Below are positions 40,255-55,571 of a stretch of 64,000 nucleotides of DNA, one piece after another. The notes beneath the pieces were generated by a model. It worked only from the letters and a program-made list of their open reading frames with translations. It made no database searches and was not told the DNA's origin. Where the stretch lies: NCBI GenBank assembly GCA_017623575.1, contig JAGAOS010000005.1, positions 14,350 through 78,349 of the forward strand, given 5' to 3'. Source of the stretch: Clostridia bacterium (lineage in GTDB: Bacteria > Bacillota > Clostridia > Oscillospirales > Acutalibacteraceae). The stretch's first letter is position 1; each line of letters begins with the position of its first letter. The translations under genes were made by a program, and so were the position numbers.

Positions 40255-40268
40255 TTCTTTGTAATGTT

Positions 40269-40428
40269 GATAGAGGTTGCGGTGTTTATCAGTAATCCTT
40301 TTAAAAGTGGGGTAACACTATGGGACGAAAGGAAACATCGCCGAAGCAGATTTGATTTTACCATTCGGTCATTTTTGCTGGTTTATTGCAAAATATGTAA
40401 TAAACTGTCACTTATGTGGAGCGCTATC
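40269..40428 (+). promoter_or_regulatory. Lysine riboswitch (L box) aptamer
   Basis: Ordered conserved L-box elements are present: GATAGAGGTTGCG, CAGTAA, GTGGGG, GAAAGG, CGCCGAAGCA, TTGCTGG, AACTGTCA and a closing GGAGCGCTATC. It aligns by eye to the B. subtilis lysC leader. Confidence 0.85.
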
Positions 40429-40450
40429 TTATGACAAATCCCCGCACTTT

Positions 40451-40485
40451 GTCACGGTAGCCATACCGTGGCTTATTTTATTTTT
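40451..40485 (+). terminator. Riboswitch expression-platform terminator
   Basis: Stem gtcacggta / taccgtggc followed by ttattttattttt, immediately before the GGAGG RBS of the transporter gene. Confidence 0.7.
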
Positions 40486-40497
40486 GGAGGTAAAAAA

Positions 40498-42135
40498 ATG
40501 ACAGCAAAAAAAATCATCCCTAAAGTGCTGATTGTTGCCTTTGTTGTTGGCTTTGGTGTTCTCTGCGCCTGTACAGGCAGTATCACAAGCCCCGTTGGCA
40601 CACTCTGGTCACTTTTTCCACCCGTAGTTGCAATTGGACTTGCGCTACTCACCAAAGAGGTTTACTCCTCACTTTTTGTAGGTATTGTTGTTGGCGGCTT
40701 GCTTGCAACAGGCTTTAACCCCTTAAAAACAATTGACGAGGTAACCACCACCGGCTTTATTGGTGCTGTTTCGGGTACCGCTGGTATTTTTGTTTTCCTT
40801 GTAATTCTGGGTATTATCGTTGCTTTACTTAATAAGGCAGGCGGCTCCAGAGCCTTTGGAGAATGGGCATCCAAGCACATAAAATCAAAAATCGGCGCTT
40901 CTATTGCAACCTTCTTCTTCGGTATACTTATTTTTATTGACGACTATTTTAACTGCCTTACAGTTGGTGCAGTTATGCGTCCCGTTACCGATAAAACCAA
41001 AATTTCCCGCGCTAAGCTGGCATACTTAATTGATGCTACCGCCGCCCCTGTATGTATGATAGCACCTATCTCATCCTGGGCAGCCGCAGTTGCTACCTAT
41101 ATTGATGTTCCCGAAGGAATGAGCGAAATTGGCATTTTCTGTCAGGCAATTCCTTACAACTTCTATTCGCTTTTAACCTTTGTTTTCGTAATAACACTCA
41201 CCCTTATGAAATTTGATTACGGCCCAATGAAATTGCACGAAATGAATGCTATGAAGGGTGACCTTTTTACAAGCGGTGAAAAGGTTGAAGCAAGAAGCGA
41301 AGAAGAACCCTCAACAGGCAAGGCTAAGGTTATTGACCTTATTGTTCCTATTGTAGTTCTTATTGTTATCTGCGTTATCGCACTTCCCTTTGTTGGCGCT
41401 AGCTTCGGCGGCGAGGATGGTGCTTTCGGTGCAGAGTATTATGATAGCTCTATAGGCTTTATTGAAGCTTTCTCAGCAACCGATGCAACCATTGCGCTCC
41501 CCTTAGGCGGAATTATTGCTTTAATTGCAGTTATTATTTACTTTATTGCAAGAAGACTTGTTTCCTTTAAAGAGGCTATGGATTGCATTCCCAAGGGCTT
41601 TATTGCTATGGTTCCCGCAATTTTAATTCTTACAATGGCTACCTCTCTTAAAAATATGACCGGTCTTTTAGATTCCGATACATTTGTTCAAGGCGCTCTT
41701 GCCTCGGCAGGTTCTTTACATAATTTCTTGCCCGCAATTATATTCCTTGTTGCTTGCGGAATTTCCTTTGCAACCGGTACATCTTGGGGTACATTCGGTA
41801 TTTTGTTACCAATAGTAATAGGCATATTCCCAATTGGCACCGCTGTAAGCTACATAGGTATGTCTGCTTGCCTTGCAGGTGCTGTTTGCGGTGACCATTG
41901 CTCACCTATTTCCGATACCACCATTATGTCCTCTGCGGGCGCTCAGTGCGACCACTTAAATCATGTGTCCACCCAGCTGCCCTACGCAATCACCGTTGCG
42001 GCAATATCATTTGTAAACTTCCTTATTGCTCCCTTTATTCAGAGCGCTTGGATTTGCCTGCCCATTGGTATTGTAATGACAGTTGCAGTTCTCTTTGTAA
42101 TTAAATTTGCAACAAAAAACAAAACCGTAGCTTAG
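40498..42135 (+). CDS. NhaC-family Na+/H+ antiporter-type transporter, probably a lysine transporter (LysW-like)
   Basis: ATG at 40498 with a GGAGG RBS. 545 aa, polytopic. Lysine riboswitches upstream of NhaC-type transporters are a known arrangement in Firmicutes. Confidence 0.8.
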   Translation: MTAKKIIPKVLIVAFVVGFGVLCACTGSITSPVGTLWSLFPPVVAIGLALLTKEVYSSLFVGIVVGGLLATGFNPLKTIDEVTTTGFIGAVSGTAGIFVFLVILGIIVALLNKAGGSRAFGEWASKHIKSKIGASIATFFFGILIFIDDYFNCLTVGAVMRPVTDKTKISRAKLAYLIDATAAPVCMIAPISSWAAAVATYIDVPEGMSEIGIFCQAIPYNFYSLLTFVFVITLTLMKFDYGPMKLHEMNAMKGDLFTSGEKVEARSEEEPSTGKAKVIDLIVPIVVLIVICVIALPFVGASFGGEDGAFGAEYYDSSIGFIEAFSATDATIALPLGGIIALIAVIIYFIARRLVSFKEAMDCIPKGFIAMVPAILILTMATSLKNMTGLLDSDTFVQGALASAGSLHNFLPAIIFLVACGISFATGTSWGTFGILLPIVIGIFPIGTAVSYIGMSACLAGAVCGDHCSPISDTTIMSSAGAQCDHLNHVSTQLPYAITVAAISFVNFLIAPFIQSAWICLPIGIVMTVAVLFVIKFATKNKTVA

Positions 42136-42273: not shown

Positions 42274-42600
42274 TTATTTATTATCTAGTTGTTCCTTAGT
42301 TTCTTTTCTGCTTTGTTCTACAACCTGCAGTATTTGCACTGTGCTTAGCGTATTTTCATGCTCGATTGTTTTGCTTTGCTGTTTTACACATTCAGCGCAG
42401 ATTTGGCCAAGCCCAATCTCATAATTATCCCGCAAATCTACCGGCATAGAAATTGGCACATCAGTCAATGCGCCACATATTACACAACGCTCAAATTCTT
42501 TGCTTTTAGCAGATTTCTTCACCCGTTCAGACTTATTTTTGCGTGACGAACGAGTACCCCCAAAAAATTGGGAGATTTTGAGAAATATCTTTAACCTCAT
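42274..42600 (-). CDS. Small Cys4 zinc-ribbon-like protein, last gene of the fibre operon
   Basis: 108 aa with CVICG...CAEC. The ATG directly follows the upstream TAA, with a GAGGTGA RBS inside the upstream gene. Confidence 0.55.
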   Translation of the reverse strand: MRLKIFLKISQFFGGTRSSRKNKSERVKKSAKSKEFERCVICGALTDVPISMPVDLRDNYEIGLGQICAECVKQQSKTIEHENTLSTVQILQVVEQSRKETKEQLDNK

Positions 42601-43440
42601 TTATTCGTTCACCTCGGTGGTGGTAGTAGGTTCGTCTGTAGTTTCCGAATTTTCGATTACAGACTGGGTTTCTGTGTTTTCCTGGGTGGTTGACGGATTT
42701 GCTGACACAGAATCAGTATCTTCTACATCCAGCTTAGTACCGCCTTGATTATCATCGGGTGCACTGGATTCATTGGAATCAGGCAAGTCTGACTGTGACT
42801 GCAAAACAGCATCGCAATCGGCTTCGGAAATGCCGTTAATAATCATAACTACCTTGTTTTTTCCAACATCCTCATTAGTAATATACAATCTATCATTTTC
42901 GCCGTTTTGTGCATAATCGGCGTAATATGAAGATGTTCCCCAATGAGAAGTAAAGGTAACAGTGGTGTCAGCAGTAGGCTTAAGCTGGAAGATTACCTTA
43001 TCGGTAAATCTACCTGAAACCGTTTCATCAGCGCCAATTTGCTGAGTATGGAAGGTATCTGCACAACCGAGGGCGGTAACTATACAAAAACCTGTTTTTG
43101 CCGTACTATCAACACTTTCGTTCAAAGTAACAGTATAAATTTTGCCTGCCATTAATTTTGCAGTGTATGAGGCATTGGGCAGTTTTTCAACTTCAATCGG
43201 GGTGGTGCTTCCATTTTCGGTTATGCTGATTACAGCATCTGCCTCAAAATTCGCCGCTTTAATAGTATTGAAGCCGGAGGTGATATCGTGAGAAAAATAG
43301 GCATATGCAGTAAAGCTCATACCAATCAAGCACAAAACAACAGTAACTACAGTTGCCACAACTCGCATAAGCATTGTTTTTTCACTGATTTTTTCATCCT
43401 TGGGTATGTAAAAATTCTCTTTATAAAAGCTTCTCACCAA
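42601..43440 (-). CDS. Secreted protein with a SipW-type signal peptide and an acidic S/T-rich tail
   Basis: 279 aa. After the TM segment comes SFTAYAYFSHDITS. The C-terminal 80 aa are rich in D, E, S and T. Confidence 0.55.
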   Translation of the reverse strand: MVRSFYKENFYIPKDEKISEKTMLMRVVATVVTVVLCLIGMSFTAYAYFSHDITSGFNTIKAANFEADAVISITENGSTTPIEVEKLPNASYTAKLMAGKIYTVTLNESVDSTAKTGFCIVTALGCADTFHTQQIGADETVSGRFTDKVIFQLKPTADTTVTFTSHWGTSSYYADYAQNGENDRLYITNEDVGKNKVVMIINGISEADCDAVLQSQSDLPDSNESSAPDDNQGGTKLDVEDTDSVSANPSTTQENTETQSVIENSETTDEPTTTTEVNE

Positions 43441-43471
43441 ATCAACCTCCTTTCTTAATTTTTACTGATAA

Positions 43472-44125
43472 TTAGGGCTTTTTTATTTGATCTGCCTTGA
43501 CGGTAATGCCAAGATCCACCTCAGGAATAGTATCCCCACGGTAGTTGGCAACATTATCAACCTCTTTAGGCATACGGACAATGAGTGCAATGTATTTTGT
43601 TTCACCGGGATTTAATACCGCAGTTTCGGTATCATAGTTATGTAAAGGCATATCTGCAAGCTTCACAGCTGCATTTCGGTCAATAACACTATTCTTCATT
43701 TCGTTTTCGCTATTGGCGGTTGTAATGCCGAATTTTAAATAATCCTGCAGCATAAAGCGCTGACCGAATACATTAGTTGCCTGAATGCAACCGTTCACAT
43801 TAACTGCTGTATAAAATTCAAAAGGCAGGGTGCCTTTGTTTTCTACTTTTAAATACACAACCTGCACATAGCCGGGTTCATATAACGCTTCTTCATCAAA
43901 AATCTTGGTCTGACTGTCAACCTCTTCCCATTTTCCATCAGTAAGACGGTGAGATACCACCAAATCAAACTCAGCAAAATGAAAAATATTATTAATTTCG
44001 GGCGAGGTATCGGTAAACCAGGCAAGAGAGGTGCCTGTACCAAAAATTCCCCAGATAATAAGTGCGCACAAAGTAAGGACTAAAGCGATTCTTTTATAGG
44101 GTTTTTTCTTTGCGATTTTTTTCAA
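43472..44125 (-). CDS. TasA/camelysin-like fibre subunit with a SipW-type signal peptide
   Basis: 217 aa, TTG start with an AGGAGG RBS. Contains GTSLAWFTDTSPE and later YEPGYVQVVYLKVENKGTLPFEFY, the TasA-like WEPG...V.N.G.L block. Confidence 0.7.
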   Translation of the reverse strand: MKKIAKKKPYKRIALVLTLCALIIWGIFGTGTSLAWFTDTSPEINNIFHFAEFDLVVSHRLTDGKWEEVDSQTKIFDEEALYEPGYVQVVYLKVENKGTLPFEFYTAVNVNGCIQATNVFGQRFMLQDYLKFGITTANSENEMKNSVIDRNAAVKLADMPLHNYDTETAVLNPGETKYIALIVRMPKEVDNVANYRGDTIPEVDLGITVKADQIKKP

Positions 44126-44138
44126 GCTTTATTCCTCC

Positions 44139-44822
44139 TTATTTGTTTTTTGGGATTTTTTCTACATTCTCCTTATTCTTTTTTCGCCATACCAAAAGAA
44201 TAATAATCGTTGCAAGTGAAATTACCATAACAGCAATCCAAAGACCAATATTACTGTTATCACCCGTTGCGGGAGGCTTGGGATCGCCTTCTTCAACAGG
44301 AAATTCTTCAATCATAAATTGCCAATCAAGATAACCGATTTCACTTTGAAATTCATTATCCATCTCAACGGGAACATTTAATGTTACATCCAGATTGACC
44401 TCACCGCCCGAATAAAGGGTGCCAAGGCATACCCAATTGGTGAGCCCTGCTGTTTCATTCGCTGCGGCATCGAACATATATGCCATTTTATTATCACTGC
44501 TCTTTTCAACCTTCAAACCGAGCTGTGAAAGAAACTCCACAGAATTCTCGTGAGCGCCGAGAGAGCGCATATAGATTTTTACCTTTACCTTATTATCCGC
44601 ATTGTTTTTTACAGTGATTTTTTGTGTTAAGGTATCACCGGGCATAACGCCCTTGAAATTTGGGAAAAGGTCGGTCAAAGAATACTCGCTTCCGGGCTCA
44701 AATACAAACTCACCTGCGTTGCCGCTATAGGTTACTCTGCCATCTGCCGCATATGCAGAAAACGCAAAAAGAAAGGTAATAATAAAAGTGACAAAAACTA
44801 TAACAAAATTTTTTCTTAGCAC
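44139..44822 (-). CDS. TasA-like-domain surface protein with a classical signal peptide and a sortase (S/P)PxTG sorting signal
   Basis: 227 aa with an SAYA-ADG cleavage-like site. NFKGVMPGDTLTQKITVKNN is a TasA-like block. The C-terminus reads PPATGD, then a TM segment (IGLWIAVMVISLATIIILLVW), then RKKNK. Confidence 0.65.
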   Translation of the reverse strand: MLRKNFVIVFVTFIITFLFAFSAYAADGRVTYSGNAGEFVFEPGSEYSLTDLFPNFKGVMPGDTLTQKITVKNNADNKVKVKIYMRSLGAHENSVEFLSQLGLKVEKSSDNKMAYMFDAAANETAGLTNWVCLGTLYSGGEVNLDVTLNVPVEMDNEFQSEIGYLDWQFMIEEFPVEEGDPKPPATGDNSNIGLWIAVMVISLATIIILLVWRKKNKENVEKIPKNK

Positions 44823-44834
44823 CTGAAATCACCT

Positions 44835-45407
44835 CTATGCTTCTTCAGCGGGCCAACCGGATGCGGTATAGGTATTACCATCGCTGATGGGGTTGTTTTC
44901 ACTTTGTACCGCCTGAGCCTTAACGGTAAGATTAAGGGTTTTACCAAGATAACTGTTATCCACCTTGGAGCCGACGATTTCCACATGGGAGAACACCGCA
45001 GGAGTGGTTTCACCTGGATTTACAATGCCTGTATAGTAAAACCATCCGTCGGTATGAAGCACCCAATGTCGCTCATCAATATTAAGCTTGAAGCAATCCT
45101 CAGAGGAAAGCTCCTTTGAGTCGATACCGTAAACCATCTTAACACGGAGATAGAAAGGATGCTCACAATCACTTTCGATACTGACCTTCTTGGAAACAAT
45201 ATCTCCGGGAACGATATACACGCCCTCCCTTGGAAACTCGGTTCCCTGATCGGTCATTTCGTGAATTATAAAACGAATATTTCCGGTGGTAACAACATTT
45301 GTGGCTGTTCCAATAGTGGAATAATATGCAAGTGTGGACTGACTCATAAAGGTAACAAGAGCAGCAATAATAGCAACGATTAATATTTTAAATTTTGTCT
45401 TGCCCAA
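44835..45407 (-). CDS. BsaA/TasA-family SipW-dependent matrix protein
   Basis: I take the start as the TTG at 45407 behind an AAGGAGG RBS; the track ORF starts at 45446. Contains QSTLAYYSTIG, PGDIVSKKVSIES and the C-terminal TVKAQAVQSENN typical of BsaA-type proteins. Confidence 0.65.
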   Translation of the reverse strand: MGKTKFKILIVAIIAALVTFMSQSTLAYYSTIGTATNVVTTGNIRFIIHEMTDQGTEFPREGVYIVPGDIVSKKVSIESDCEHPFYLRVKMVYGIDSKELSSEDCFKLNIDERHWVLHTDGWFYYTGIVNPGETTPAVFSHVEIVGSKVDNSYLGKTLNLTVKAQAVQSENNPISDGNTYTASGWPAEEA

Positions 45408-45442
45408 TATAATGTCCTCCTTTTGCAAGATTTTGCCTATCA

Positions 45443-45633
45443 GCAATCAAAAGACAAAAACTACTGCGTAGTTTTGAAGTAATAAGTAATAGTGAATAGG
45501 TAATAAGTTCGGTGTGCCTTCGGCACGAATTTATTTTGTCGGCTCTGCCGACGCCTTACTTCTTACCTCTTACCTTAAAATGCAAAGCATTTTTGCCCTT
45601 TGATTGCCGCCTATCCCCCTTACGAGGGATAGG
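45443..45633 (-). repeat. Hairpin-rich composite intergenic repeat, copy A (full length)
   Basis: The outer arms gcaatcaaaagacaaaaa / tttttgccctttgattgc enclose the hairpins ctac-tgc-gtag, gtgcc-ttc-ggcac, gtcgg-ctctg-ccgac and aaaatgc-aaa-gcatttt, plus a purine-rich arm facing a pyrimidine-rich arm. A trailing hairpin cctatccc...gggatagg follows. Confidence 0.8.
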
Positions 45634-45668
45634 AAGGGCTTTATGTGAATAAAACTATATTTCGTTAA

Positions 45669-47780
45669 TTAAAGTGTAGCAAGATATGCATTCCACTCTG
45701 CTACAGTATAGTTGGTACCATTGTAAACAATTGCGCCAACTGTTGCGCCATCTTCGATAACGAGCTTTTGAAGATTTGCTTTTGTGGCATACGCTGAGGA
45801 AGTACCGTAATCGACAACAAGCTTATCGATTGCAGTGCCTGCTTTGATAGTCACTTTGCCCCTGATGGGAGCAGCATAGATCGTATCAATTTCTGCGCCG
45901 TCGATAGTAACATTGGCATGACTCCAGCAGTAGATAGTGCCGTATTCACCGCCGTTAACGGTGGTAGTGGTGCCATTAGAAAAACCTGCATCCACTGGCA
46001 TAGCACCGTCGATCATAGCGGTAGTGCCTGTCATAACACAATTATTCAAGATTGCGTTGCCGTAATGTGAAAAACCGCAAGCAAGAGTAAAGCCCTTGTC
46101 TCCGTTTGCGAGAGTCGAAACAAGATCCTTTACAACGAGGTTATTGGCAACATAGTCGCCGCCGCCCAAACCGTAATGACCAAGCTCAACGAAACCGGCA
46201 CCTGTAACGGTCAAATCACTTACAGTTACGTCCTCGCCTGCTGAAGGAACAAATGCAACATAACCGTGATTACCAACGGAGGGATCTGCACCCTCGGTAG
46301 TAATGGTATTACCCATGCCGTTAAAATTGATCGCATCGGTCGTCTCTATAATCAATTGATTGTCCGGATCGGTGTTAACATATTCAATATCGGTAGCCAT
46401 GAATACATCTTTGCCGCTGGTAGCAGTGTTAAGAGCTTCTGCAGTAGCAACCACCTGTCCGCCTGCAACAACTTTATTATTGTTCAAAGTGGGAACATAG
46501 TTATCGGTTTCGTAGATATAATTACCCTGATCGCCTGCCTGGCAGTCGATGAAGTGACTGTTCTTGATTACAATGTTAAAGCTGCTTTCTTCTCTATCGT
46601 CGATAGCAATACCTGGTTTCTCAGAAAGAGGTCCGAATACACAATCGTCTACCACAACATTTGAAACCTCGCCTGCATACTGGTCACAAACCTTCAAGCC
46701 GCGAGTACCGCTGAAGTAGCAACCGGTAAAGGTAGCCTTGCCGTTATAAACCCATGCGCCATACATCGTGGTATTGCCATAAGTAGAAGAATCGTTATTG
46801 TGGCCGGAGAAGGTACAGTCTACAAAGGTAGACAGAGGACCGTCGGTCATAATACCGTCGTCAAATGCAACATTAACAAAGGTGTTATTGCCACCAAGTT
46901 CAAGATAGGTGAACTCCCAAGCATTCTCACCGTCTTCATAGGTGTAGAAAGTAGAGTCTACAACCTTCATGTTCTTCAGGTTGATGTTATCAAGACCGCC
47001 GCCGTGACCGGTAACGGTGATGGTAGCATCATCGGACGCACCAACCAGAGTGACACCGTTCATGTCTCTGTTTTTGCCTGCACGTTCTGCAGCCAATTCA
47101 ATGGCAGTGCCTTTGATGCCAATGATCTTTGCACCGCTTGCAAGAGCATCTTCTAACTCTTTGGTTGTGGTAGCAAGAACATCATAATATGTGGCATCCT
47201 TATCATACTGGTTGTTAAAGCTATCATTTTCGTGTGTTAGCTGAGTAGCATAAACAGCAACTGAAATGCCCTCAACCTTGAGATTCTGATATTCATTACC
47301 GGCATTTTCCTTCATATGACCGGTAAGAATAATTTCGCCAGATTTTTCATTAGGAAGCAATTTACCTTCGTAGGTGTACATATCAGTCTCAACACCATCC
47401 ACGGTAATAGTCCAATCAATTGCTTCGAGAAGTTTTGCATCACCAATAATGCCATTGATAACAAAGTTGTATTTCAAAGCTAATGTGCCTTTATTTACAA
47501 CATAGATAGGCTCCATTTTATAAGTGCATCCGGGTTCCCAAAGAATCTGATCTTGAGCACGATTATCAGCAGTAACGAACTCAATAACCTCACCCTCTAA
47601 TGAGTTACCGTCAGCATCAACCAAATCAACCCTTAAAGTACCGGACTTAATAATGTTACCCGAAGAGGTAACGGAGTCTGTGAACCAAGCAAAGGTGCTT
47701 CCAACGAGCATAGAAACACATACAATTAGTGACAAAGCACTCATAAGGAGAGCACGCTTGGTGGTTTTAGCTTTAGTCAT
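45669..47780 (-). CDS. Large fibre/adhesin protein: SipW-type signal, TasA-like N-domain and right-handed beta-helix passenger
   Basis: 703 aa. Contains GSTFAWFTDSVTS, ILWEPGCTYKMEPIYVVNKGTLALKYNF, then repeated beta-helix-like turns (VDCTFSG, FTGCYFSG, VDDCVFG, IKNSHFIDC). Confidence 0.7.
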   Translation of the reverse strand: MTKAKTTKRALLMSALSLIVCVSMLVGSTFAWFTDSVTSSGNIIKSGTLRVDLVDADGNSLEGEVIEFVTADNRAQDQILWEPGCTYKMEPIYVVNKGTLALKYNFVINGIIGDAKLLEAIDWTITVDGVETDMYTYEGKLLPNEKSGEIILTGHMKENAGNEYQNLKVEGISVAVYATQLTHENDSFNNQYDKDATYYDVLATTTKELEDALASGAKIIGIKGTAIELAAERAGKNRDMNGVTLVGASDDATITVTGHGGGLDNINLKNMKVVDSTFYTYEDGENAWEFTYLELGGNNTFVNVAFDDGIMTDGPLSTFVDCTFSGHNNDSSTYGNTTMYGAWVYNGKATFTGCYFSGTRGLKVCDQYAGEVSNVVVDDCVFGPLSEKPGIAIDDREESSFNIVIKNSHFIDCQAGDQGNYIYETDNYVPTLNNNKVVAGGQVVATAEALNTATSGKDVFMATDIEYVNTDPDNQLIIETTDAINFNGMGNTITTEGADPSVGNHGYVAFVPSAGEDVTVSDLTVTGAGFVELGHYGLGGGDYVANNLVVKDLVSTLANGDKGFTLACGFSHYGNAILNNCVMTGTTAMIDGAMPVDAGFSNGTTTTVNGGEYGTIYCWSHANVTIDGAEIDTIYAAPIRGKVTIKAGTAIDKLVVDYGTSSAYATKANLQKLVIEDGATVGAIVYNGTNYTVAEWNAYLATL

Positions 47781-47936
47781 TTTATTTTCTCCTTTTTATG
47801 CTGTCGGTGTAGATTTAAAGTTTTTTACCCACACACCGACATATGGGAATAACTATGCTTTTAACTTGTGTAAGGGAGCTTTTATAAAGCAATTAAACTA
47901 AAGTTCCTTTTTTGATGCTAGGCATCATTTGGGGGA

Positions 47937-48620
47937 TTATTTGCCCCAATAGTTAGTGAATGCGGCGCGTGCCTCTGTGCCGGTGTTATCAGCCTGAAGA
48001 GCCTCTGCCTTAACCTTAATGCTAAAGTCGCCACTAACATACTTCATATCTTCCTGCTCAAACTCACCGGGGATGGTTACATTGTTAAAAAGAACAGCTG
48101 TCTGATCCTCAACAAGTTTGGTGCGGAGATAGTACACATAGGTTACCTTGTTGTCAACATAGGTGGTAGCTGCATCATCAGCATACCAAGCATTAGCATC
48201 AACATCTAACCAAGTGCGAAGGTCGCTGGTGATACCCTGTGCGTCACAAGCAGCCTTAATGGTTGACCACTCATCAAAGGAAACATATACACGGATCCAC
48301 TGATCATAATCACCTGTATTCTCAACTGTAGGATTCTTGGGAAGCTTATCGCCGGGGGCGATTTCGGGATATGTATTACCGGCATGAGTAATTTCGGTAT
48401 CACCGTCATTATCAGCATCGGCATTGTTATCACCGTCATTCTCATTTTCCCATACCTCAACGCTGAAGTCGGGAGTACCGTCTCCGTCGCTATCGGCAAT
48501 TAAGAATTTATTGGTAATTTCATCAGCAGCATTGAACCATGCCAAAGTACCCATAGAAAGAATAGCAATAAGGCAAACTGCAAGAGCTGCAACAAACACC
48601 TTTTTCTTAGTTAATCTCAT
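47937..48620 (-). CDS. BsaA/TasA-family SipW-dependent matrix protein with an Asp-rich Ca-binding-like insert
   Basis: 227 aa. Contains MGTLAWFNAADEI, DSDGDGTPD...NDGDNNADADNDGDTE, PGDKLPKNPTVENTG and the C-terminal KVKAEALQADN. Confidence 0.65.
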   Translation of the reverse strand: MRLTKKKVFVAALAVCLIAILSMGTLAWFNAADEITNKFLIADSDGDGTPDFSVEVWENENDGDNNADADNDGDTEITHAGNTYPEIAPGDKLPKNPTVENTGDYDQWIRVYVSFDEWSTIKAACDAQGITSDLRTWLDVDANAWYADDAATTYVDNKVTYVYYLRTKLVEDQTAVLFNNVTIPGEFEQEDMKYVSGDFSIKVKAEALQADNTGTEARAAFTNYWGK

Positions 48621-48701
48621 TGTATTTTTCCTCCTTTCTTAAAGATTTTATTTCAAACTCGTGCCTGTCGGAATTCCTTTACAGGCGCGAATCGGAAACC
48701 G

Positions 48702-49325
48702 TTAGTTTTCGCTCTTTTTGCTTTCCATTTCGGCACGGAGCTGAGCAAGCTCGGCCTTCAGTTTTTCGTTTTCCTCCGCAGCAGTGTCAATTTCGGTCTG
48801 CACGGCGGAAGCTTCTTCGCCTTCATCATCTTTTTTCTTCTTACCAATCATATCGGGCAGAAAAACGGCGATGATCAAAATAACACCTATAGCAATGGTT
48901 ATGTACATACCGGGGGGATGCTGCACAAAGTCTGAAACATAGCCAAGCTTTGGAATAGAAAACTTAGGCACACCTATTACATTGTTATAATGAACGGGGG
49001 CTTGATCCTCCACCTGATTGGCATCACCCTTGGTATAAAAACGCTGATTTTCGGCATCCACACGAACAACGCGGTGGGTACCAATAGCCAAATCCTCATT
49101 AATAATAAAGGTTATTACATCCCCCGCCTTAATGGTGGCAGGGTCAACCTGTTTTACATAAATAAGATCCCCTACACTGTAATTAGGCTCCATACTGGGG
49201 GAAATAACGGTATAGCACTGATAGCCTATAAGCCGTGAGCCCATTAAAAATACGGCGCAAAAAACAATTACAATAACTAGTATGGTAGATACAATGTTCC
49301 ATACTTTTTTAAGGGTGTTATTCAT
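48702..49325 (-). CDS. sipW: Signal peptidase I, SipW (archaeal/ER) type, with a C-terminal TM segment and charged coiled-coil-like tail
   Basis: 207 aa. Contains ISPSMEP (catalytic Ser), GDLIYVK, THRVV (His) and TKGDANQVED, then a TM segment and the tail KKKKDDEGEE...NEKLKAELAQLRAEMESKK. Confidence 0.85.
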   Translation of the reverse strand: MNNTLKKVWNIVSTILVIVIVFCAVFLMGSRLIGYQCYTVISPSMEPNYSVGDLIYVKQVDPATIKAGDVITFIINEDLAIGTHRVVRVDAENQRFYTKGDANQVEDQAPVHYNNVIGVPKFSIPKLGYVSDFVQHPPGMYITIAIGVILIIAVFLPDMIGKKKKDDEGEEASAVQTEIDTAAEENEKLKAELAQLRAEMESKKSEN

Positions 49326-49340
49326 AAATGCATCTCCTTG

Positions 49341-49508
49341 TTACCTTCGGTAATAAGAACCTGACCTGTTACCGCAATCACAGATTGCGAACAGGTGCCC
49401 AGAACCTTGTTGCCTTTCGGCAATCAAAAGACAAAAATTACCTCTTACCTTAAAATGCAAAGCATTTTTGCCCTTTGATTGCCGCCTATCCCCCTTGCGA
49501 GGGATAGG
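49341..49508 (-). repeat. Hairpin-rich composite intergenic repeat, copy B (central part deleted, extra 5' module)
   Basis: Shares ttgcctttcggcaatcaaaagacaaaaa ... ttacctcttaccttaaaatgcaaagcatttttgccctttgattgccgcctatccccc with copy A. It also shares the module taataagaacctgacctgttaccgcaatcacagattgcgaacaggtgcccagaaccttgttgcc with copy C. Confidence 0.8.
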
Positions 49509-49554
49509 ACGGACTTTATTATCCGTTCATGCGGATAGTATTTATATTTTAAAA

Positions 49555-51570
49555 TTAGTAAACATCCACACCGTCAATAACAATGTTCAGATACTCTTTA
49601 GTCATAGAATTCTTGTTACCAACGATATTCTTGTAACCAACACACTTATCATTCTCAGCAAAGCCGTTAACGGTAGTATCGTTGATATAGATGTTGTACT
49701 TAGCACCAACACCGTCTACACCGGTTTCGAAAGCAGACTTAGTAAAGCCGGTGCCATTGGTGCGATCATTAAAGGTACAACCATCTACATAAACATCACA
49801 GGTCTGATTGTAAACAAGAATGGACTTACCATCGGTGTTAAAGGTGCAATTGTTGAACTTAACGTTTTTGCCACCCCAAGTCCAAATGTTGTAATAATCA
49901 CCTGTAACATTGAATGTACAGTTGTTGAACACACTTTCGCCATAGAGAGTGTATGAACCATTGAATGTACAGTTGTTATAAGTGGCTCTGCAACGCGCAT
50001 ATCCCGCATAAGTATGACCATCGGTGTTGATAGTAACACCCTCAAAGGTTACGGTTGAGCCATCAAGGCTATAGTCGCAACCCTCATAGGAGCCGTCGTT
50101 TTGGTTAGCTACAACAGTATTGCCGTTACCAACGATGGTAAGAGTCTTACCCTGAGCAGAATCAGGAATGATGTAGTTACCGGAGCCCAAAACCACAGTA
50201 GATGCACCATTAGCAATAGCAGTATCAAACTGAGTATTGTTCTTTACCTGAACAGCCTCGGTTGCATCGCTGCCATCGGCTGCATCACCAAGGATTTTAA
50301 CTTGATAGTCCTGAGCAGAAGACTGTGCAGCATAAACTCTTGCAGCTACGGTAGCGTTTTTAACATAAATAACCAAAGGATTGGAATATCCTGTATCCTG
50401 ATGAGTTGCAAACTGACCGCCGCCTTCAAACTTAACATCATCACCCAAAAGATAGATGCTGGTGAGGTTCGGGCAAGAACGGAATACATAGTTAGCAAGT
50501 GTAGGATTGCCTTTGATGGTAACGGTGGTCAGGTTTGCCATATCTCTGAACGCACCCTCATCAATCATCTTAACGCTTGCAGGAATGGTAAGTTTAGACA
50601 TACCTGTTAGTCTAAAGGCCTGCTCACCAATGTATTCAAGAGTTGACGGGAAATTGATCGATTTAAGAGTTGACATATTGATTGCTCTTGCATTGATTTC
50701 CTTAACACCCTCAGGAAGAGTGATACTCTCAACAGAAGAATACTTGCTGAATACCGGTCCGTTGGTATCATTCTTATCTTTAGCAATACCAATCATAGTT
50801 ACATCGTCCGGCACGGTAAAGGTTGTGCCTACATTTCCATAAGGAACACTTCTGAGCACTACATTACCATCGTTAAGGTAGTAATAGGTGTTGCCGTCGA
50901 TAACCTTGATGTGCTTATCAGGAACATCGATATCATCGTAGTTCTCGTCAAAGCTGTCTTTCTCAACATTGTCCTGAGTAGCCATCAAAACAACCTTGAA
51001 ATCAGAACCGATAGAAAGTCCCTGATACTCGTTGCCGGCAGTTTCCTGCATTTTAAGGGCAATGGTTACGGTGTCAGCGGTATTTGCTTTAAGGTCGCCG
51101 GCCATATTAGCAGGCATACCGTCCAAAATATCGCTTAAAGTACCAACTTTGGTGAGTTCAGTCATTTCTCTGCTTGCCAAAGTATATTCACCCTCAGCGA
51201 AATACACGTCGATAACATCAGCGAGTTCACTAACTTCGCCATTCGCTGCAATGTTAAGGTTGTATTTGAGAGCCAAAGTGCCGACATTGCTGATTTTAAT
51301 GTTCTTTGCCTCAACATAGCCGGGCTCCCAAAGATCGTAATTAAAGATTGCACCGGCAGAAGCATCTTTGTAAACCTGCTGTGCACCGGTTGGGGTTGCA
51401 TCCTTCCACTCCATTGTTACGTCAAGAGTACCGGACTTAATAATGTTACCTGCGGAAGTAACGCTGTCTGTGAACCAAGCGAATGTGCTACCAACCAACA
51501 TAGATATGCACACAAGCAAGGACAAGGCGCTGAACAGCAAAGCGCGCTTGGTTGATTTTTGCTTTGTCAT
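49555..51570 (-). CDS. Large fibre/adhesin protein: SipW-type signal, TasA-like N-domain, BspA-type LRR and beta-helix passenger
   Basis: 671 aa. The N-terminal 45 aa are nearly identical to the 703-aa protein. The LRR-like region reads ITLPEGVKEINARAI...INFPSTLEYIGEQAF...LTIPASVKMIDEGAF. NCTFN repeats occur near the C-terminus. Confidence 0.7.
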   Translation of the reverse strand: MTKQKSTKRALLFSALSLLVCISMLVGSTFAWFTDSVTSAGNIIKSGTLDVTMEWKDATPTGAQQVYKDASAGAIFNYDLWEPGYVEAKNIKISNVGTLALKYNLNIAANGEVSELADVIDVYFAEGEYTLASREMTELTKVGTLSDILDGMPANMAGDLKANTADTVTIALKMQETAGNEYQGLSIGSDFKVVLMATQDNVEKDSFDENYDDIDVPDKHIKVIDGNTYYYLNDGNVVLRSVPYGNVGTTFTVPDDVTMIGIAKDKNDTNGPVFSKYSSVESITLPEGVKEINARAINMSTLKSINFPSTLEYIGEQAFRLTGMSKLTIPASVKMIDEGAFRDMANLTTVTIKGNPTLANYVFRSCPNLTSIYLLGDDVKFEGGGQFATHQDTGYSNPLVIYVKNATVAARVYAAQSSAQDYQVKILGDAADGSDATEAVQVKNNTQFDTAIANGASTVVLGSGNYIIPDSAQGKTLTIVGNGNTVVANQNDGSYEGCDYSLDGSTVTFEGVTINTDGHTYAGYARCRATYNNCTFNGSYTLYGESVFNNCTFNVTGDYYNIWTWGGKNVKFNNCTFNTDGKSILVYNQTCDVYVDGCTFNDRTNGTGFTKSAFETGVDGVGAKYNIYINDTTVNGFAENDKCVGYKNIVGNKNSMTKEYLNIVIDGVDVY

Positions 51571-51672
51571 ATAAATGACCTCCTTATTTTATTTTGCCAA
51601 CGCTCAAAAGTGGATAACCGCACCGCGCTGACCGTTGACTTAACGCACGGAACGATTGGTAGATTTTTAATA

Positions 51673-51954
51673 TTGCCTTTCGGTAATAAGAACCTGACCT
51701 GTTACCGCAATCACAGATTGCGAACAGGTGCCCAGAACCTTGTTGCCTTCGGCAATCAAAAGACAAAAAACTACTGCGTAGTTTTGAAGTAATATGTAAT
51801 AGTGAATAGGTAATAAGTTCGGTGTGCATTAGGCACGAATTTATTTTGTCGGCTCTGCCGACACCTTACTTTTTCACTATTACCTCTTACTTATTACCTC
51901 AAAACCGCAACGCGGTTTTTGCCCTTTGATTGCCGCCCATCTGAAAGGGATGGG
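51673..51954 (-). repeat. Hairpin-rich composite intergenic repeat, copy C (full length plus 5' module), within the 5' leader of the 671-aa gene
   Basis: Same architecture as copies A and B, but two hairpins have different sequences that still pair: aaaaccgc-aa-gcggtttt replaces aaaatgc-aaa-gcatttt, and cccatc-tgaaag-gatggg replaces cctatccc...gggatagg. Confidence 0.8.
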
Positions 51955-52036
51955 ACGGCGTGAGGTGAAAATGTTCGAAGCCGTGATATATTTTATTACC
52001 ACGCTCAACATAGGGATAAGCTATATAGTAATAGAA

Positions 52037-52267
52037 TTAATACTTTACAAATGGGATTAGTGATAACCACAATCTCCTTCTTTTATGTATCCAGTACCGC
52101 CGTTCCGAACCATCGGTGCGCTCGATTTCCATATTGATATATTCCAGTTCCTGTAAAAATTCTTTAATGAACAAGCATAAACCAACAAGCAATCCAATAA
52201 AAATCGGAACAGCAATAATTCCTATAAGTATCCAAAATGTGGTATCCAAATTATTTGCTTCGGGCAT
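52037..52267 (-). CDS. Small single-TM membrane protein
   Basis: I take the start as the ATG at 52267 (MPEANNLDTTFWILIGIIAVPIFIGLLVGL...) behind an AGGAGA RBS; the track ORF extends further upstream. Confidence 0.45.
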   Translation of the reverse strand: MPEANNLDTTFWILIGIIAVPIFIGLLVGLCLFIKEFLQELEYINMEIERTDGSERRYWIHKRRRLWLSLIPFVKY

Positions 52268-52400
52268 CGCTATCTCCTGTTTCTTCGCTGGCGGGGGTGG
52301 GGGTAGTGCGGTTTTGTTTGGAATTGTTGATACTAAAAACGGCACAAATCATAAAACCGATAATACCGCCCACAACAAATCCAATAAAAAAATTCAACAT
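52251..52400 (-). CDS. Possible 49-aa hydrophobic peptide (DUF3789-like, recalled from memory)
   Basis: MLNFFIGFVVGGIIGFMICAVFSINNSKQNRTTPTPASEETGDSDARSK. It falls below the ORF-track size cut-off and overlaps the next start by about 17 nt. The RBS is weak. Confidence 0.3.
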   Translation of the reverse strand: MLNFFIGFVVGGIIGFMICAVFSINNSKQNRTTPTPASEETGDSDARSK

Positions 52401-52438
52401 TGGGTTTCAACTACTTTCTATAAGTAAGGGGACTATAA

Positions 52439-53188
52439 TTACTCTGTTTCTGCACCCGTAGTAGTATCGGATACAGTATCATCAGATGCAATGGTGGCAG
52501 TTTCTGCAACTGCTTCATCAGGCTGTTTGCCCTCCAACTGAGCTTTAAGTGCTTTAAGCTCCTCAAGCATCTTGGCGTTTTCTGCCTTTTCTGCTTCAAT
52601 TTTATCCTTTTCAGCCTGCATTTCTTCCATCTGCTCTTTTTTATAGCGGCGGAACAGGTTGAAGAATTTAACACCTTCATACAAAATAATCAGCATAAAT
52701 GGGGTGAAAATACAAACGAAATATCCGGGGGTGGTCTTTAAAAAGTTAAAGAAGGTTCCAAGGCCGGGAATGGCGCTTGAATATTTACCCAAAACATAAG
52801 GGTAGGTTACAATGGTTTCATCATCCACACCGGTGGTGGTACCATAGGTAACAAATCCGGGATTACCCTCAGCATCGGTGGTGAGAGTGCGGATTTTATG
52901 GGTTATGGTTTCGCCGAAGCTGTTGGTATCCTGTGACATAAAGGTGATGATGTCGCCCGCTTTAAGGGTGGAGGGATCAACCTCTTTTACAAGAATCAAG
53001 GAGCCTGCATCAAAATCGGTAGCTGCCATTGAATCTGTATTTACTATGTACATCTTAATACCAAACAGATCTCTGTCATTGCGGTTAAAGGTGGTAACCG
53101 AGATAACGGTAAATATCATCATAGATACCGCAAGTAGAACAATCAGCCATATGATTGTTATTTTAATAATGTTAAATGCTTTTTTCAC
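52439..53188 (-). CDS. sipW: Second, divergent SipW-type signal peptidase I with a long coiled-coil-like tail
   Basis: 249 aa, GTG start. Contains NTDSMAA (Ser), GSLILVKEVDPSTLKAGDIITF (matches B. subtilis SipW closely) and ITHKI (His). YGTTTGVDDE replaces the KGDAN block. A TM segment follows, then KKEQMEEMQAEKDKIEAEKAENAKMLEELKALKAQLEG. Confidence 0.75.
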   Translation of the reverse strand: MKKAFNIIKITIIWLIVLLAVSMMIFTVISVTTFNRNDRDLFGIKMYIVNTDSMAATDFDAGSLILVKEVDPSTLKAGDIITFMSQDTNSFGETITHKIRTLTTDAEGNPGFVTYGTTTGVDDETIVTYPYVLGKYSSAIPGLGTFFNFLKTTPGYFVCIFTPFMLIILYEGVKFFNLFRRYKKEQMEEMQAEKDKIEAEKAENAKMLEELKALKAQLEGKQPDEAVAETATIASDDTVSDTTTGAETE

Positions 53189-53208
53189 AATATACCCTCT
53201 CTTTGCTT

Positions 53209-53823
53209 TTATTTTTCAAAAACGGTCTCCGCTGCCTCTTTATTGCTCCAGGAAAGCTGCGTACCAATTGCCGAATAAATGACCGAAAAAACCTCTTCTG
53301 CTGTTTCTTCGTCATCCGGAATTTCGGCACGCAAAATTTTAATAATGGTGGAGTAAACAATATCGAGTATGCGATTTAACACACGCCAAACATCCGTACT
53401 TTTTTTGAAAGCGGGGGTGAAACTTTCTATAACCCTGCAATACGCCCTTCTTCTGTCTATAGGAGAATAGGAATTGTAATAGTGAGAATAATAGTACTTG
53501 ATAAAGAAAGAGCATTTTTCTCTGTCGGAAACAATATTCTTCCAACAGCTTCTGAAGAATATATGACATCTTTCATCAATATCAATTCCTTTTATATTCA
53601 TAATCGGTACATACTTTAGAATACAAGCAATAAGCTCATTATCAATTTCGGTAAAGGTAGCAGCAAATAAATCATCCTTATCCTTAAATACCCTATAAAT
53701 ATATGCCTCGTTAATGCCTGAATGGGTTGCTATTGCTTTTGTGGTGGCTTTGTGAATGCCGTCGGCGGCAACTATGTGGATGGTGCTGTCAATAAATTTT
53801 TGACGCATATACGACTGTTCCAT
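53209..53823 (-). CDS. TetR/AcrR family transcriptional regulator
   Basis: I take the start as the ATG at 53823 behind a GGAGGA RBS. The N-terminal HTH reads FIDSTIHIVAADGIHKATTKAIATHSGINEAYIYRVFKDKDDLF. Confidence 0.8.
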   Translation of the reverse strand: MEQSYMRQKFIDSTIHIVAADGIHKATTKAIATHSGINEAYIYRVFKDKDDLFAATFTEIDNELIACILKYVPIMNIKGIDIDERCHIFFRSCWKNIVSDREKCSFFIKYYYSHYYNSYSPIDRRRAYCRVIESFTPAFKKSTDVWRVLNRILDIVYSTIIKILRAEIPDDEETAEEVFSVIYSAIGTQLSWSNKEAAETVFEK

Positions 53824-53873
53824 TTTCTTTCCTCCGGTTCGTAAGTGTTTACTACAAATTTTAGAAAAATAAT

Positions 53874-53892
53874 ACAAACGCTGAACGTTTGT
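53874..53892. promoter_or_regulatory. Palindromic operator candidate upstream of the TetR gene
   Basis: acaaacg-ctgaa-cgtttgt has 7-bp inverted arms and lies about 50 nt upstream of the TetR start. Confidence 0.4.
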
Positions 53893-53970: not shown

Positions 53971-54201
53971 TTAAGGTTTAATAATAGGTTCGACATTTAT
54001 AATGCTTTCTTTGGCACACCGCTTACATTTAATCGGTAGATTTTTAATCTCAGTGTCGGGAAGTAACCAGAGCACTGTATGCTTTCCGCATATGGGACAA
54101 AAAAATCTTCGTCGCTCTGTTTTAGTATCGTTTTCTGTTATTTTATTCTGTAATGCTTTTTCCAAATTAGGATCACCTCGGTTTTGGCTCAATTGCATCA
54201 A
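53971..54201 (-). CDS. Cysteine-rich KTR-domain-like small protein
   Basis: FFCPICGKHTVLWLLPDTEIKNLPIKCKRCAKESIINV matches the CPxCG...NFPLxCxxC pattern of KTR proteins found on Firmicutes mobile elements. The real start may be the TTG at 54165 behind GAGGTGA. Confidence 0.6.
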   Translation of the reverse strand: MMQLSQNRGDPNLEKALQNKITENDTKTERRRFFCPICGKHTVLWLLPDTEIKNLPIKCKRCAKESIINVEPIIKP

Positions 54202-54360: not shown

Positions 54361-54382
54361 ACATAATGGGTATTATGTTGTA
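54361..54382 (+). repeat. Core-type recombination site 1 (dif-like)
   Basis: acataatgggtattatgttgta. The 7-bp inverted arms acataat/attatgt surround gggt. Same orientation as site 2. Confidence 0.65.
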
Positions 54383-54419
54383 TTTGTTTATAAAAAAACG
54401 ATGCTAATTGAACATCGGC

Positions 54420-54444
54420 ATCACATAATGGGTATTATGTTGTA
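54420..54444 (+). repeat. Core-type recombination site 2 (dif-like)
   Basis: atcacataatgggtattatgttgta is a perfect 25-bp inverted repeat of site 3. Confidence 0.7.
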
Positions 54445-54680
54445 CGAACAGCCGAAACTAGCATACTTCGTTACTTCATCAGTAGCAATGATTATAGCAT
54501 AGTTTGTTGAAAAAAGCAAGTAATTTTTAATAAAAAATAAGATTTACATAAAAACAACAGATTTTGGGCGTAGTGAAGGAGACCTTTTGTTTAATTTTTT
54601 CAAAAGGTCATCTTTGTTATACTTTATTTACATATATTAAAGCATCTAATAATGGTAAATCTCCTTTATTTATTAAGTTT

Positions 54681-54705
54681 TACAACATAATACCCATTAT
54701 GTGAT
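54681..54705 (-). repeat. Core-type recombination site 3 (dif-like), inverted relative to sites 1 and 2
   Basis: tacaacataatacccattatgtgat is the reverse complement of site 2. It lies 24 nt from the recombinase stop codon. Confidence 0.7.
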
Positions 54706-54728
54706 AACCGCTAATTTGTTAGCGGTTT

Positions 54729-55571
54729 TTATATTATCAATCGCATATTCTCCATACGGCGCTGATGCTCTGCACCGGTGGTAATTATATAAATACGAGT
54801 TGTATTTATATTGGAATGACCAAGAATATCCGCCAGCTTTGCAATATCCTTTTCAATGCCGTAAAAAGTGCGAGCAAAAAGATGTCTGAGATTGTGCGGA
54901 AAAACCTTTTGCGGCGAAACACCGGCTTCTTCACACAGTTCCTTCATTTGCCGCCATATATTACTACGGTCAAGCGGCTTTCCGTTTTTGGTTACAAACA
55001 ATATTCCGGTAGTAATACCCTGTTCTGCGGCATACCGAAGCAGCTTCTTTTTCAAAGCCTTGACAATGAATATTTTTCTTGTTTTACCCTTACAAGAAAC
55101 CTCTGCCTCCCCTCGCCTGACAGCCTCCACAGTTATATATTGCAACTCACTAACACGAATGCCTGTTCCACAGATTGTCTGTACCACAAGGGACAGCCGT
55201 TCGTTTTTCTTTTGCTCAGCCGCTCTGACAAGGGCTGTGTATTCCGCCCTGGTAAGCTCCTTTTCCTCAGAACAGTAGGCTTCGTTTTGAAGCTTGAACT
55301 GCTTTACACATAAATCATTCCAGCCGGCAAATCTAAAAAAGGCATTCAATGCCGCCAGCATTGAGTTGGTGCTTCTTATGGCGTACTTTTCGGCTAAGGC
55401 GCCCTTGTACTCCAACACCATTGCTTTATTTGGTATATTCCCATCTGCATAATCTGCAAAAAAATGAATATCTCGCATATATTTTTGAATGGTTGCTTCT
55501 GTCTTTTCATTTTCGGTAAGATATTTTTTAAAGTCATTTATAATTTTTAAGGTAATAATAGTTTTTTTCAT
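54729..55571 (-). CDS. Tyrosine site-specific recombinase (XerC/XerD-like integrase family)
   Basis: 280 aa. N-terminal SAM-like core-binding domain. Catalytic residues are R in GTGIRVSEL, HxxR in HNLRHLFARTF, and H...Y in LGHSNINTTRIY. Confidence 0.9.
   Translation of the reverse strand: MKKTIITLKIINDFKKYLTENEKTEATIQKYMRDIHFFADYADGNIPNKAMVLEYKGALAEKYAIRSTNSMLAALNAFFRFAGWNDLCVKQFKLQNEAYCSEEKELTRAEYTALVRAAEQKKNERLSLVVQTICGTGIRVSELQYITVEAVRRGEAEVSCKGKTRKIFIVKALKKKLLRYAAEQGITTGILFVTKNGKPLDRSNIWRQMKELCEEAGVSPQKVFPHNLRHLFARTFYGIEKDIAKLADILGHSNINTTRIYIITTGAEHQRRMENMRLII

Follow-up and report, generated by a model that had tools for sequence, protein, structure and literature searches.

A putative TasA/BsaA-superfamily fibre gene set with an apparent invertible-promoter switch in an uncultured gut Oscillospirales bacterium

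What kind of surface structure is encoded when TasA-like and BsaA-like secreted subunits, adhesin-sized proteins, a sortase-signal protein and two SipW-type signal peptidases lie side by side, does the set build one fibre or several products, and how is its transcription set? These questions are raised by a locus on the minus strand of a 64,000-nucleotide stretch of contig JAGAOS010000005.1 (hereafter the window; positions count from its first letter), which derives from an uncultured gut Oscillospirales bacterium. Twelve same-strand genes, whose open reading frames (ORFs) we confirmed, occupy 42274-53877 and, together with a switch region just upstream, make up a surface-fibre gene set of ~13 kb. 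An earlier note, made from the sequence alone, had described a SipW-type locus with two peptidases, six SipW-type signals, a sortase-signal protein, a Cys4 protein and a TetR gene, and all of these are present. Our preferred answer, to which we give a probability of roughly 0.6, is that the locus specifies a set of TasA/BsaA-superfamily subunits assembling by donor-strand exchange, under the control of what appears to be an invertible promoter.

We first consider how the subunits would leave the cell. Both candidate peptidases exceed the cut-off of TIGR02228, the model for archaeal/endoplasmic-reticulum-type signal peptidase I (51.85 bits), with 102.2 bits for peptidase A (48702-49325) and 61.6 bits for peptidase B (52439-53188), and score below the cut-off of 190 of the Bacillus SipW equivalog NF046067 (98.9 and 72.4 bits). 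Orthologues were collected by scanning genomes with the sortase-signal protein, which gave 80 loci in different Oscillospirales metagenome-assembled genomes, mapped by tblastn and ORFs; the hosts, Acutalibacteraceae, Faecousia, Oscillospiraceae and others, were recovered from the guts of ruminants and humans. Both peptidases retain the catalytic SM and TH motifs (42 and 25 orthologues, respectively), and each protein has a long, charged, coiled-coil-like C-terminal tail past its second transmembrane (TM) segment; peptidase B has TYGTTT in place of the conserved TKGD motif. The locus had been described as duplicated, with two peptidase-plus-large-subunit modules. At ~32-36% identity to each other, and with each conserved across species (orthologues of peptidase B are typically about 60-88% identical), the two peptidases are old paralogues and not a recent duplication.

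The proteins that these enzymes would process are concentrated in the same locus. Among the window ORFs of 100 aa or more (22,209 aa in total), the regular expression [STG][FLTI]A[WY][FY] matched five times, every time at the N-terminus of a protein of the fibre locus, and a sixth protein carries the variant TAYAYF; this clustering is far beyond chance. The curated signal model TIGR04088 (cut-off 19 bits) is passed by the 671-aa (23.0 bits), 703-aa (25.6 bits) and 227-aa (27.3 bits) proteins, while the 217-, 203- and 279-aa proteins fall below it and were recognized by eye or by the regular expression only.

Profile comparison places five of these secreted proteins in the TasA/BsaA superfamily and sorts them into two classes. 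The TasA-like class consists of the N-domains of large subunit 1 (671 aa, 49555-51570) and large subunit 2 (703 aa, 45669-47780), together with the 217-aa small subunit (43472-44125). The BsaA-like class holds a 227-aa subunit (47937-48620) and a 203-aa ORF, refined to 190 aa from TTG 45407 (44835-45407). Against A7, a profile built from 58 large-subunit N-domains of the window and its related loci, the 217-aa family, a free-standing version of that domain, reached an hhalign probability of 99.85% (E 6e-31) and the 227-aa family 99.3%; the 227- and 203-aa families also matched each other at 99.3%. Direct matches to Peptidase_M73 (PF12389, gathering score 22.5) were found for the 671-aa protein (32.9 bits) and, below threshold and over the N-terminus only, for the 703-aa protein (19.5 bits); the 217-aa protein had none in the Pfam search, and 28 of 60 related large subunits matched at E <= 1e-4. 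Searched against the PDB, A7 reached TasA at an E-value of 0.28 only, and PDB sequence searches with the family profiles of the sortase-signal, 217-, 203- and 227-aa proteins returned nothing useful. The BsaA model TIGR04090 (cut-off 60) gave 29.5 bits (E 6e-7) for the 227-aa protein and 34.1 bits (E 2e-8) for the 203-aa protein, scores that point to homologues of BsaA outside the curated subfamily. The proposal of the earlier note, that TasA-like and BsaA-like subunits occur together with adhesin-sized members and a sortase-signal member, is supported by the profile comparisons.

The BsaA-like class carries a further signature. An Asn/Glu/Lys triad is invariant in both families (N37/E58/K95 in 38 orthologues of the 227-aa protein; N50/E63/K86, in the numbering of the 203-aa ORF, in 39 of the other), the triads of the two families align with each other, and the Asn sits in the putative donor strand. 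In BsaA, mutation showed N35/E56/K74 to be needed for oligomerization (PMC11580942). From position and from the 21-residue Asn-to-Glu spacing that BsaA shares with N37/E58, rather than from a direct alignment, we infer that the triads are equivalent. The TasA-like class has no conserved Lys at this lock position. Donor strands throughout the locus have a common Asn position and an overall W/Y-F...N...I/F pattern.

The two large subunits are closely alike at their N-termini, where 45 of the first 60 residues match; their signal and donor strand are near-identical, and a 144-nt DNA repeat of the two genes (D1) is 76% identical. Past its N-domain, the 671-aa protein has BspA-type leucine-rich repeats (LRRs; LRR_5 76.9 bits, with PDB LRR surface proteins matching at 2e-20) and Cys-containing NNCTF repeats. 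For the C-terminal half of large subunit 2, neither a PDB sequence search nor Pfam gave a match; going by the domains of its relatives and its own xxC(T/Y/V)F repeats, this half may be beta-helix-like. Relatives of the large subunits (450-2015 aa) keep the N-domain and end in LRR_5, right-handed beta-helix or pectate-lyase-like adhesive domains, and both their number, one to four per locus, and their C-termini vary between species. A sortase-polymerized pilus of the SpaA type was also considered and rejected, as no protein of the locus has a pilin or sortase Pfam match. A role as a spore appendage was weighed too, and the data spoke neither for nor against it.

How would such a fibre be held at the cell? 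The sortase-signal protein (227 aa, 44139-44822) has an ordinary signal peptide (AYA/ADG) and ends in PPATGD, a TM segment and RKKNK. It passes the LPXTG anchor model TIGR01167 (18.2 bits against a cut-off of 15.9) and is without any Pfam domain; the sorting motif reads [PA]PxTGD in most of the orthologues examined across the 80 loci. Its family is large, with over 6,000 clusters at 90% identity and 1,812 at 50% identity, and almost all members come from gut metagenomes of ruminants and humans. Shallow orthologue alignments were too weak for hhalign with this protein, and diverse profiles, A7 and the anchor-family profile A9, proved informative: A9 gave 96.2% against the TasA-like N-domains and 96.3% against the BsaA-like family, consistent with a distant TasA/BsaA-superfamily domain. 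In the A9 alignment the first core strand follows the signal peptide at once, and a gap of 7 residues faces WFTDSVT. In TasA, mature residues 28-38, the first 11, form the donor strand, and fibres form poorly when they are deleted (PMC9674648). Because the fold seems to be kept and the donor-strand segment is missing, we regard the PPATGD protein as a putative wall-anchored TasA-superfamily subunit that would accept a strand but donate none. An AlphaFold2 model (mean predicted local distance difference test, pLDDT, 66) had the TasA fibre 8aur as its top PDB match (E 3e-5, TM-score 0.37), with the archaeal bundling pilus 7ueg also among the fold matches; the underlying alignment was shallow and the model poor because homologue searches gave only sequences 75-94% identical. 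A sortase gene (PF04203) lies directly downstream of the anchor orthologue in the three most distant loci (L068:10692-11429, L069:3420-4157 and L072:1972-2715).

The 279-aa protein (42601-43440), the last of the six with a SipW-type signal, is of a different kind. By hhalign, the 279-aa family resembles the other subunits over the signal, a donor-strand-like segment and the first strand only, and the protein is not a TasA jellyroll beyond the donor strand. Its AlphaFold2 model has a beta-sandwich core with pLDDT above 90 and a disordered tail. This tail, acidic and Ser/Thr-rich, takes the position at which some orthologues (P0169, P0174, P0177, P0180, P0183 and others) carry a C-terminal LysM domain (PF01476). 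Homology to TapA was sought in Pfam and NCBIfam, where the protein has no match, and the likeness to TapA is one of layout, not sequence: a donor-strand-like N-terminus followed by a disordered tail. By analogy, the 279-aa protein is possibly a TapA-like initiator or cap.

We next asked how far this arrangement is shared. A neighbourhood survey, proposed in the earlier note, found the same gene order in most of the 80 related loci: (recombinase, switch, KTR, TetR), peptidase B, small membrane protein, zero or one large subunit, peptidase A, BsaA-like subunit, one to four large subunits, BsaA-like subunit, anchor, TasA-like subunit, 279-aa protein, (Cys4). The succession of 203-aa subunit, anchor, 217-aa subunit and 279-aa protein, separated in the window by 12-31 nt, recurs in roughly 60-75 of the 80 loci, and this group of four small genes, which closes the locus, forms its constant core; taken singly, the 203-aa subunit is present in 74 loci and the 217-aa subunit in 69. 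Other members are rarer. A 76-aa single-pass membrane protein (52037-52267, start refined to ATG 52267), which had no family match in Pfam or NCBIfam profile searches, occurs in 18 of the 80 loci, always after peptidase B, and the 108-aa Cys4 protein (42274-42600; ORF and domain scan) in 18 of 80 as well. The Cys4 gene, placed with TetR at the head of the locus by the earlier note, is the last gene and abuts the 279-aa gene. The TetR-family regulator (53209-53823, 204 aa from the refined start ATG 53823, with start and ribosome-binding site inspected; TetR_N 36.8 bits) does stand at the head, and with it a second zinc-ribbon gene, Cys_rich_KTR (53971-54201; PF14205, 37 bits), the first gene past the switch and likewise upstream of TetR in L012, L014, L015, L035, L038 and L050.

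The genes had also been described as tightly coupled with strong ribosome-binding sites. A GGAGG-type site does precede nearly every gene, but four gaps of 466, 229, ~260 and 156 nt interrupt the run. The first three, before the 671-aa gene (51571-52036), peptidase A (49326-49554) and the 203-aa gene (45408-45668), contain copies of a conserved, mosaic two-hairpin repeat. Its core is a GC-rich hairpin, CCTATCCCTC...GAGGGATAGG, with compensatory changes at 7 of 12 pairs among 49 instances; a near-invariant CGGCAATCAAAGGGCA follows the first hairpin, and the complement of this element lies downstream. More than 30 related loci carry the core, each with one to four copies that always lie in gaps of this kind and are 80-90% identical in nucleotide sequence. 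The repeat matches no Rfam family, and a search of the locus, in which a cyclic di-GMP (c-di-GMP) riboswitch was specifically sought, yielded no riboswitch or known RNA family. The repeat may be an RNA processing, stabilizing or antitermination element that sets subunit ratios.

These data bear on whether the genes contribute to a single fibre. A different reading is that the locus makes several products and not one heteropolymer, with the TasA-like and BsaA-like classes forming separate fibres or matrix, perhaps with one peptidase each, and the PPATGD protein anchoring one class or none. The division into two sequence classes with different conservation of the lock residue would fit such a reading, as would the two old peptidase paralogues, each conserved, the long repeat-bearing gaps that divide the locus into at least four units, and the report that BsaB of Clostridium perfringens strain 13 does not join BsaA oligomers (PMC11580942). 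The core of the locus argues otherwise. The anchor gene lies between a BsaA-like and a TasA-like gene with gaps of 12-13 nt, and no part of the locus is more conserved than these three genes; the anchor family matches the two classes equally well, and the shared Asn position and strand pattern unite the donor strands of both. We consider separate products rather unlikely.

It is also conceivable that no long fibre is made, and that the N-domain serves as a tag by which variable adhesins or enzymes dock onto a short stub of small subunits bound to the wall. The near-identity of signal and donor strand in the two large proteins is what would be expected of such a tag, and the number and C-terminal domains of the cargo vary by species while the small subunits stay constant. 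The N-domains, however, are predicted to be complete jellyrolls with both strand and groove, and would thus be able to polymerize, and the characterized relatives (TasA, BsaA and the archaeal bundling pili) all form long filaments. A mere display scaffold is, in our judgement, improbable.

What might control the donor-strand-exchange fibre set lies upstream of the region delimited in the earlier note, whose coordinates miss a recombinase and a three-site invertible promoter (54361-55571). The recombinase (54729-55571, minus strand) is an Xer-like tyrosine recombinase and putative invertase (Phage_integrase 90.8 bits); its Xer-type NCBIfam matches all lie below the equivalog cut-offs, and it has weak similarity to FimB/E-type invertases. 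Beside it, a perfect 25-nt inverted repeat, formed by site B (54420-54444) and site C (54681-54705, TACAACATAATACCCATTATGTGAT), encloses a segment of 236 bp (54445-54680). A third copy, site A (54361-54385), has the orientation of site B, so that site C is the inverted partner of both, and the site core ACATAAT-N4-ATTATGT is conserved in related loci. The segment contains an extended -10 promoter on the minus strand (TTGCTT 54514-54519, TG 54498-54499, TATAAT 54491-54496, together TTGCTT-N17-TGcTATAAT), which in the window faces the operon. A consensus scan missed this promoter because its -35 hexamer agrees at only 3 of 6 positions, and it was recognized by eye and regular expression instead. 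Between sites B and A lies a terminator-like hairpin followed by T7 (54399-54417, minus strand), oriented against operon-directed transcripts.

The same switch layout is kept in seven related loci, among them L012, L025, L026, L034, L036 and L050, with sites 228-290 bp apart and a recombinase adjacent, which is syntenic with the switch in the first five of these and was located upstream of the L050 switch by tblastn. A promoter match lies inside the segment in most of the six named and is near-consensus in L034 and L050; in L025 the switch is 58 nt upstream of peptidase B, without KTR or TetR between them. Both orientations occur: the promoter faces the operon in the window, L012, L034, L050 and L087, and away from it in L026, L036, L084, L085, L086 and L088. 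A hairpin and A/T run between same-orientation sites is also found in L085 and L086, with different stem sequences.

Contigs from other samples allowed a comparison within one strain. An ENA metagenome scaffold (L089) matches the window at 100% identity, and in contigs from other samples with an identical recombinase or TetR protein the break mostly falls at the sites or no more than about 33 nt away. Six same-strain contigs break in this way, and L092, L096 and L097, of the same strain, end or start inside site B. One contig, L098, which is 98.9-100% identical to the window, L089 and L094, has 193 nt of the segment reversed at 100% identity and joined to the operon side, the product of inversion between sites A and C; L085 and L086 are A x C products as well. 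Because L098 carries the segment inverted relative to the window, both switch orientations exist in one strain, across different samples.

That the repeats and recombinase are a mobile-element remnant or Xer-type site with no regulatory switch is very improbable: the recombinase is indeed generic Xer-like, with no invertase-specific model above cut-off, and about 12 related loci are without the repeats, but both orientations are found, the same strain included, a promoter lies inside the segment, the recombinase-switch-operon position is conserved across species, and no other mobile-element genes adjoin the switch, a major facilitator superfamily (MFS) gene and housekeeping genes flanking the region. 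Separately, a second switch with the same site core (ACATAAT-ATTG-ATTATGT) and three sites is present downstream of Cys4 in two loci (L019:5364-5575 and L020:3222-3433), which show opposite arrangements.

Taken together, a donor-strand-exchange fibre set with a promoter switch could work as follows. The orientation of the invertible segment would set transcription of the KTR-TetR-peptidase-fibre operon. The precursors would be exported with N-terminal signal anchors, and the two peptidases, judging from their family membership, would cut after (S/T)(F/L)A, which would free an N-terminal strand of the form W/Y-F-x-D/S-x-x-T/S-x-x-N; this strand would enter the jellyroll of an adjacent subunit, as happens in TasA. 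For the two BsaA-like subunits, the invariance of the Asn/Glu/Lys triad makes an additional lock by an Asn-Lys isopeptide bond probable. Large subunits would join through their TasA-like N-domain and display their variable LRR or beta-helix binding domains. At one end, the acceptor-only PPATGD protein would finish the chain, and a sortase encoded outside the locus would join it to peptidoglycan; at the other end, the donor-only 279-aa protein would fill the groove, as proposed for TapA with TasA. If growth proceeds at the base, following the membrane-tethered model proposed for BsaA (Kivimaki et al., PMC11580942), the initiator and early subunits would consequently lie at the tip and the anchor would be added last. 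The complete scheme, a distinct class of Gram-positive pilus, abundant in gut Oscillospirales and built tip-first, with a donor-only tip, interchangeable adhesins, an isopeptide-locked shaft, an acceptor-only sortase-fixed end and a three-site off/low/high switch moving a promoter as well as a terminator, is one that we put forward tentatively and that may well fail in one or more of its parts.

Several results weigh against the proposed fibre and its switch. The pairing of the subunits and their order in the fibre are what we infer from the comparisons above. The anchor model is of low confidence (pLDDT 66, TM-score 0.37), and at the lock position the anchor carries Gln, Glu or Asp in place of Lys, so that any bond to it would be non-covalent. 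No sortase gene is found among window ORFs of at least 100 aa. For the body of the 279-aa protein, Foldseek gave no significant PDB fold match, only weak generic beta-sandwich matches, and the LysM domains of its orthologues could mean wall binding and not a distal cap. The long gaps could hold promoters of their own. In the state seen in the window, the terminator-like hairpin lies between the promoter and the operon, and a further hairpin follows the KTR gene. The three sites would allow four arrangements and, because of the intervening hairpin, the window may represent a low rather than a fully on state, which is speculative. Finally, about 12 related loci whose upstream sequence is long enough to include a switch have none; because they are without such repeats, we regard the switch as a lineage-specific addition and not an integral part of the fibre set.

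How does the locus compare with known systems? The bsa operon of C. perfringens (sipW-bsaA-bsaB-bsaC; in most strains sipW, bsaA, an LPXTG-bearing bsaB and a second bsaB with srtB adjacent; PMC7395162, PMC11580942) likewise places BsaA-like subunits bearing an Asn/Glu/Lys triad after a SipW-type peptidase, with a sortase-signal paralogue of the TasA superfamily alongside, and is proposed to use donor-strand exchange with an isopeptide lock. Unlike bsa, the present locus has two peptidases, extra TasA-like subunits, one to four large LRR or beta-helix subunits, the 279-aa donor-strand protein and the upstream invertible promoter; it is without the von Willebrand factor A-type BsaC and without an adjacent sortase, and its BsaA-like subunits score 29.5 and 34.1 against the TIGR04090 cut-off of 60. 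With tapA-sipW-tasA of Bacillus subtilis (8aur) it would share a SipW-processed jellyroll subunit, a donor strand formed by the first ~11 mature residues and, with the 279-aa protein as the counterpart of TapA, an accessory protein whose donor strand matches and whose C-terminal part is disordered. Similarity to TasA in sequence is marginal, as the N-domain profile shows (E 0.28), and the TasA system differs in having homopolymer fibres, one peptidase, SinR/Spo0A control and no DNA inversion, with neither a sortase-signal subunit nor large fusion subunits. In gene content, as the earlier note had claimed, the locus has more components than tapA-sipW-tasA or the bsa operon of strain 13.

The statement in the same note that no comparable system is known was too strong, since two preprints predict LPXTG-linked loci with multiple TasA-family paralogues. 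In the operons described by Kivimaki et al. (PMC11580942), TasA/BsaA paralogues occur alongside LPxTG proteins, sortases and signal peptidases; heteropolymers were suggested, as was an LPXTG BsaB anchor in most C. perfringens strains. In the AbpX preprint (10.64898/2026.01.04.697558), AlphaFold3 models have LPXTG anchors joined to AbpX fibrils by donor-strand complementation. The general architecture is thus anticipated, although no such system has been experimentally characterized. AbpX and archaeal Tafi/bundling-pilus loci resemble ours in clustering subunits with a dedicated peptidase, predicted tip components and an anchor (10.64898/2026.01.04.697558; PMC9245690). AbpX itself, in contrast, belongs to a different subfamily and has peptidases with ten TM helices, and AbpX/Tafi neighbourhoods hold c-di-GMP and two-component regulators, with no inverton and no polymorphic large subunits described.

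Functional parallels exist in unrelated systems. In chaperone-usher pili and sortase pili, the one-sided subunits PapH and SpaB, respectively, end growth and fix the fibre to the envelope. The anchor proposed here would similarly be a one-sided, chain-ending subunit, while its proteins and chemistry are unrelated: polymerization would proceed by strand exchange, with sortase acting at the last step only, and neither a pilin motif nor a pilin-type sortase is present. Invertible promoters control surface structures in fimS of Escherichia coli, with FimB/FimE, and in the RecV switches of Clostridioides difficile (cwpV, flgB). Surveys have found invertons in gut Bacteroidales and Firmicutes (PMC11602134, PMC9881135). 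The switch described here agrees with these in its short inverted repeats around a promoter, adjacent tyrosine recombinase, surface-structure target and occurrence of both orientations in nature; unlike them, it has three sites, not two, a terminator in the small inter-site segment and up to four arrangements. Our literature search found no inverton reported with a SipW/TasA-type locus. It also found no report of this abundant Oscillospirales family, of an acceptor-only anchor with a donor-only partner or of polymorphic large subunits, nor of paired peptidases, the intergenic repeat or a multi-site inversion switch in such loci.

Three observations concern other parts of the window. A lysine riboswitch (RF00168, 99.8 bits) at 40263-40434 on the plus strand lies upstream of a Na+/H+ antiporter-family gene (40468-42135), which suggests a lysine-regulated transporter. 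The ORF at 28311-31310 (minus strand, 999 aa) combines an MFS transporter (residues 14-375) with a glycoside hydrolase family 2 glycosidase (about 500-864) and is either an unusual fusion or a frame artefact. At 9918-14993 (minus strand), a 1691-aa protein with a weak MAM-domain match ends in an NPVTG-type sorting signal, a TM segment and a basic tail, and would be a second sortase substrate with a non-LPXTG motif.

The size and gut origin of the anchor family, with its more than 6,000 clusters, indicate that the locus represents a common, uncharacterized surface structure of poorly cultured gut Clostridia. An acceptor-only anchor and a donor-only 279-aa protein give testable predictions of fibre polarity for the TasA superfamily, in which polarity is unsettled even for TasA and TapA. 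If the proposed fibre is correct, it would combine growth by donor-strand exchange with anchoring by sortase, two processes usually treated separately in Gram-positives, and would provide phase-variable display of changing LRR and beta-helix adhesins, with a bearing on colonization, aggregation and immune evasion.

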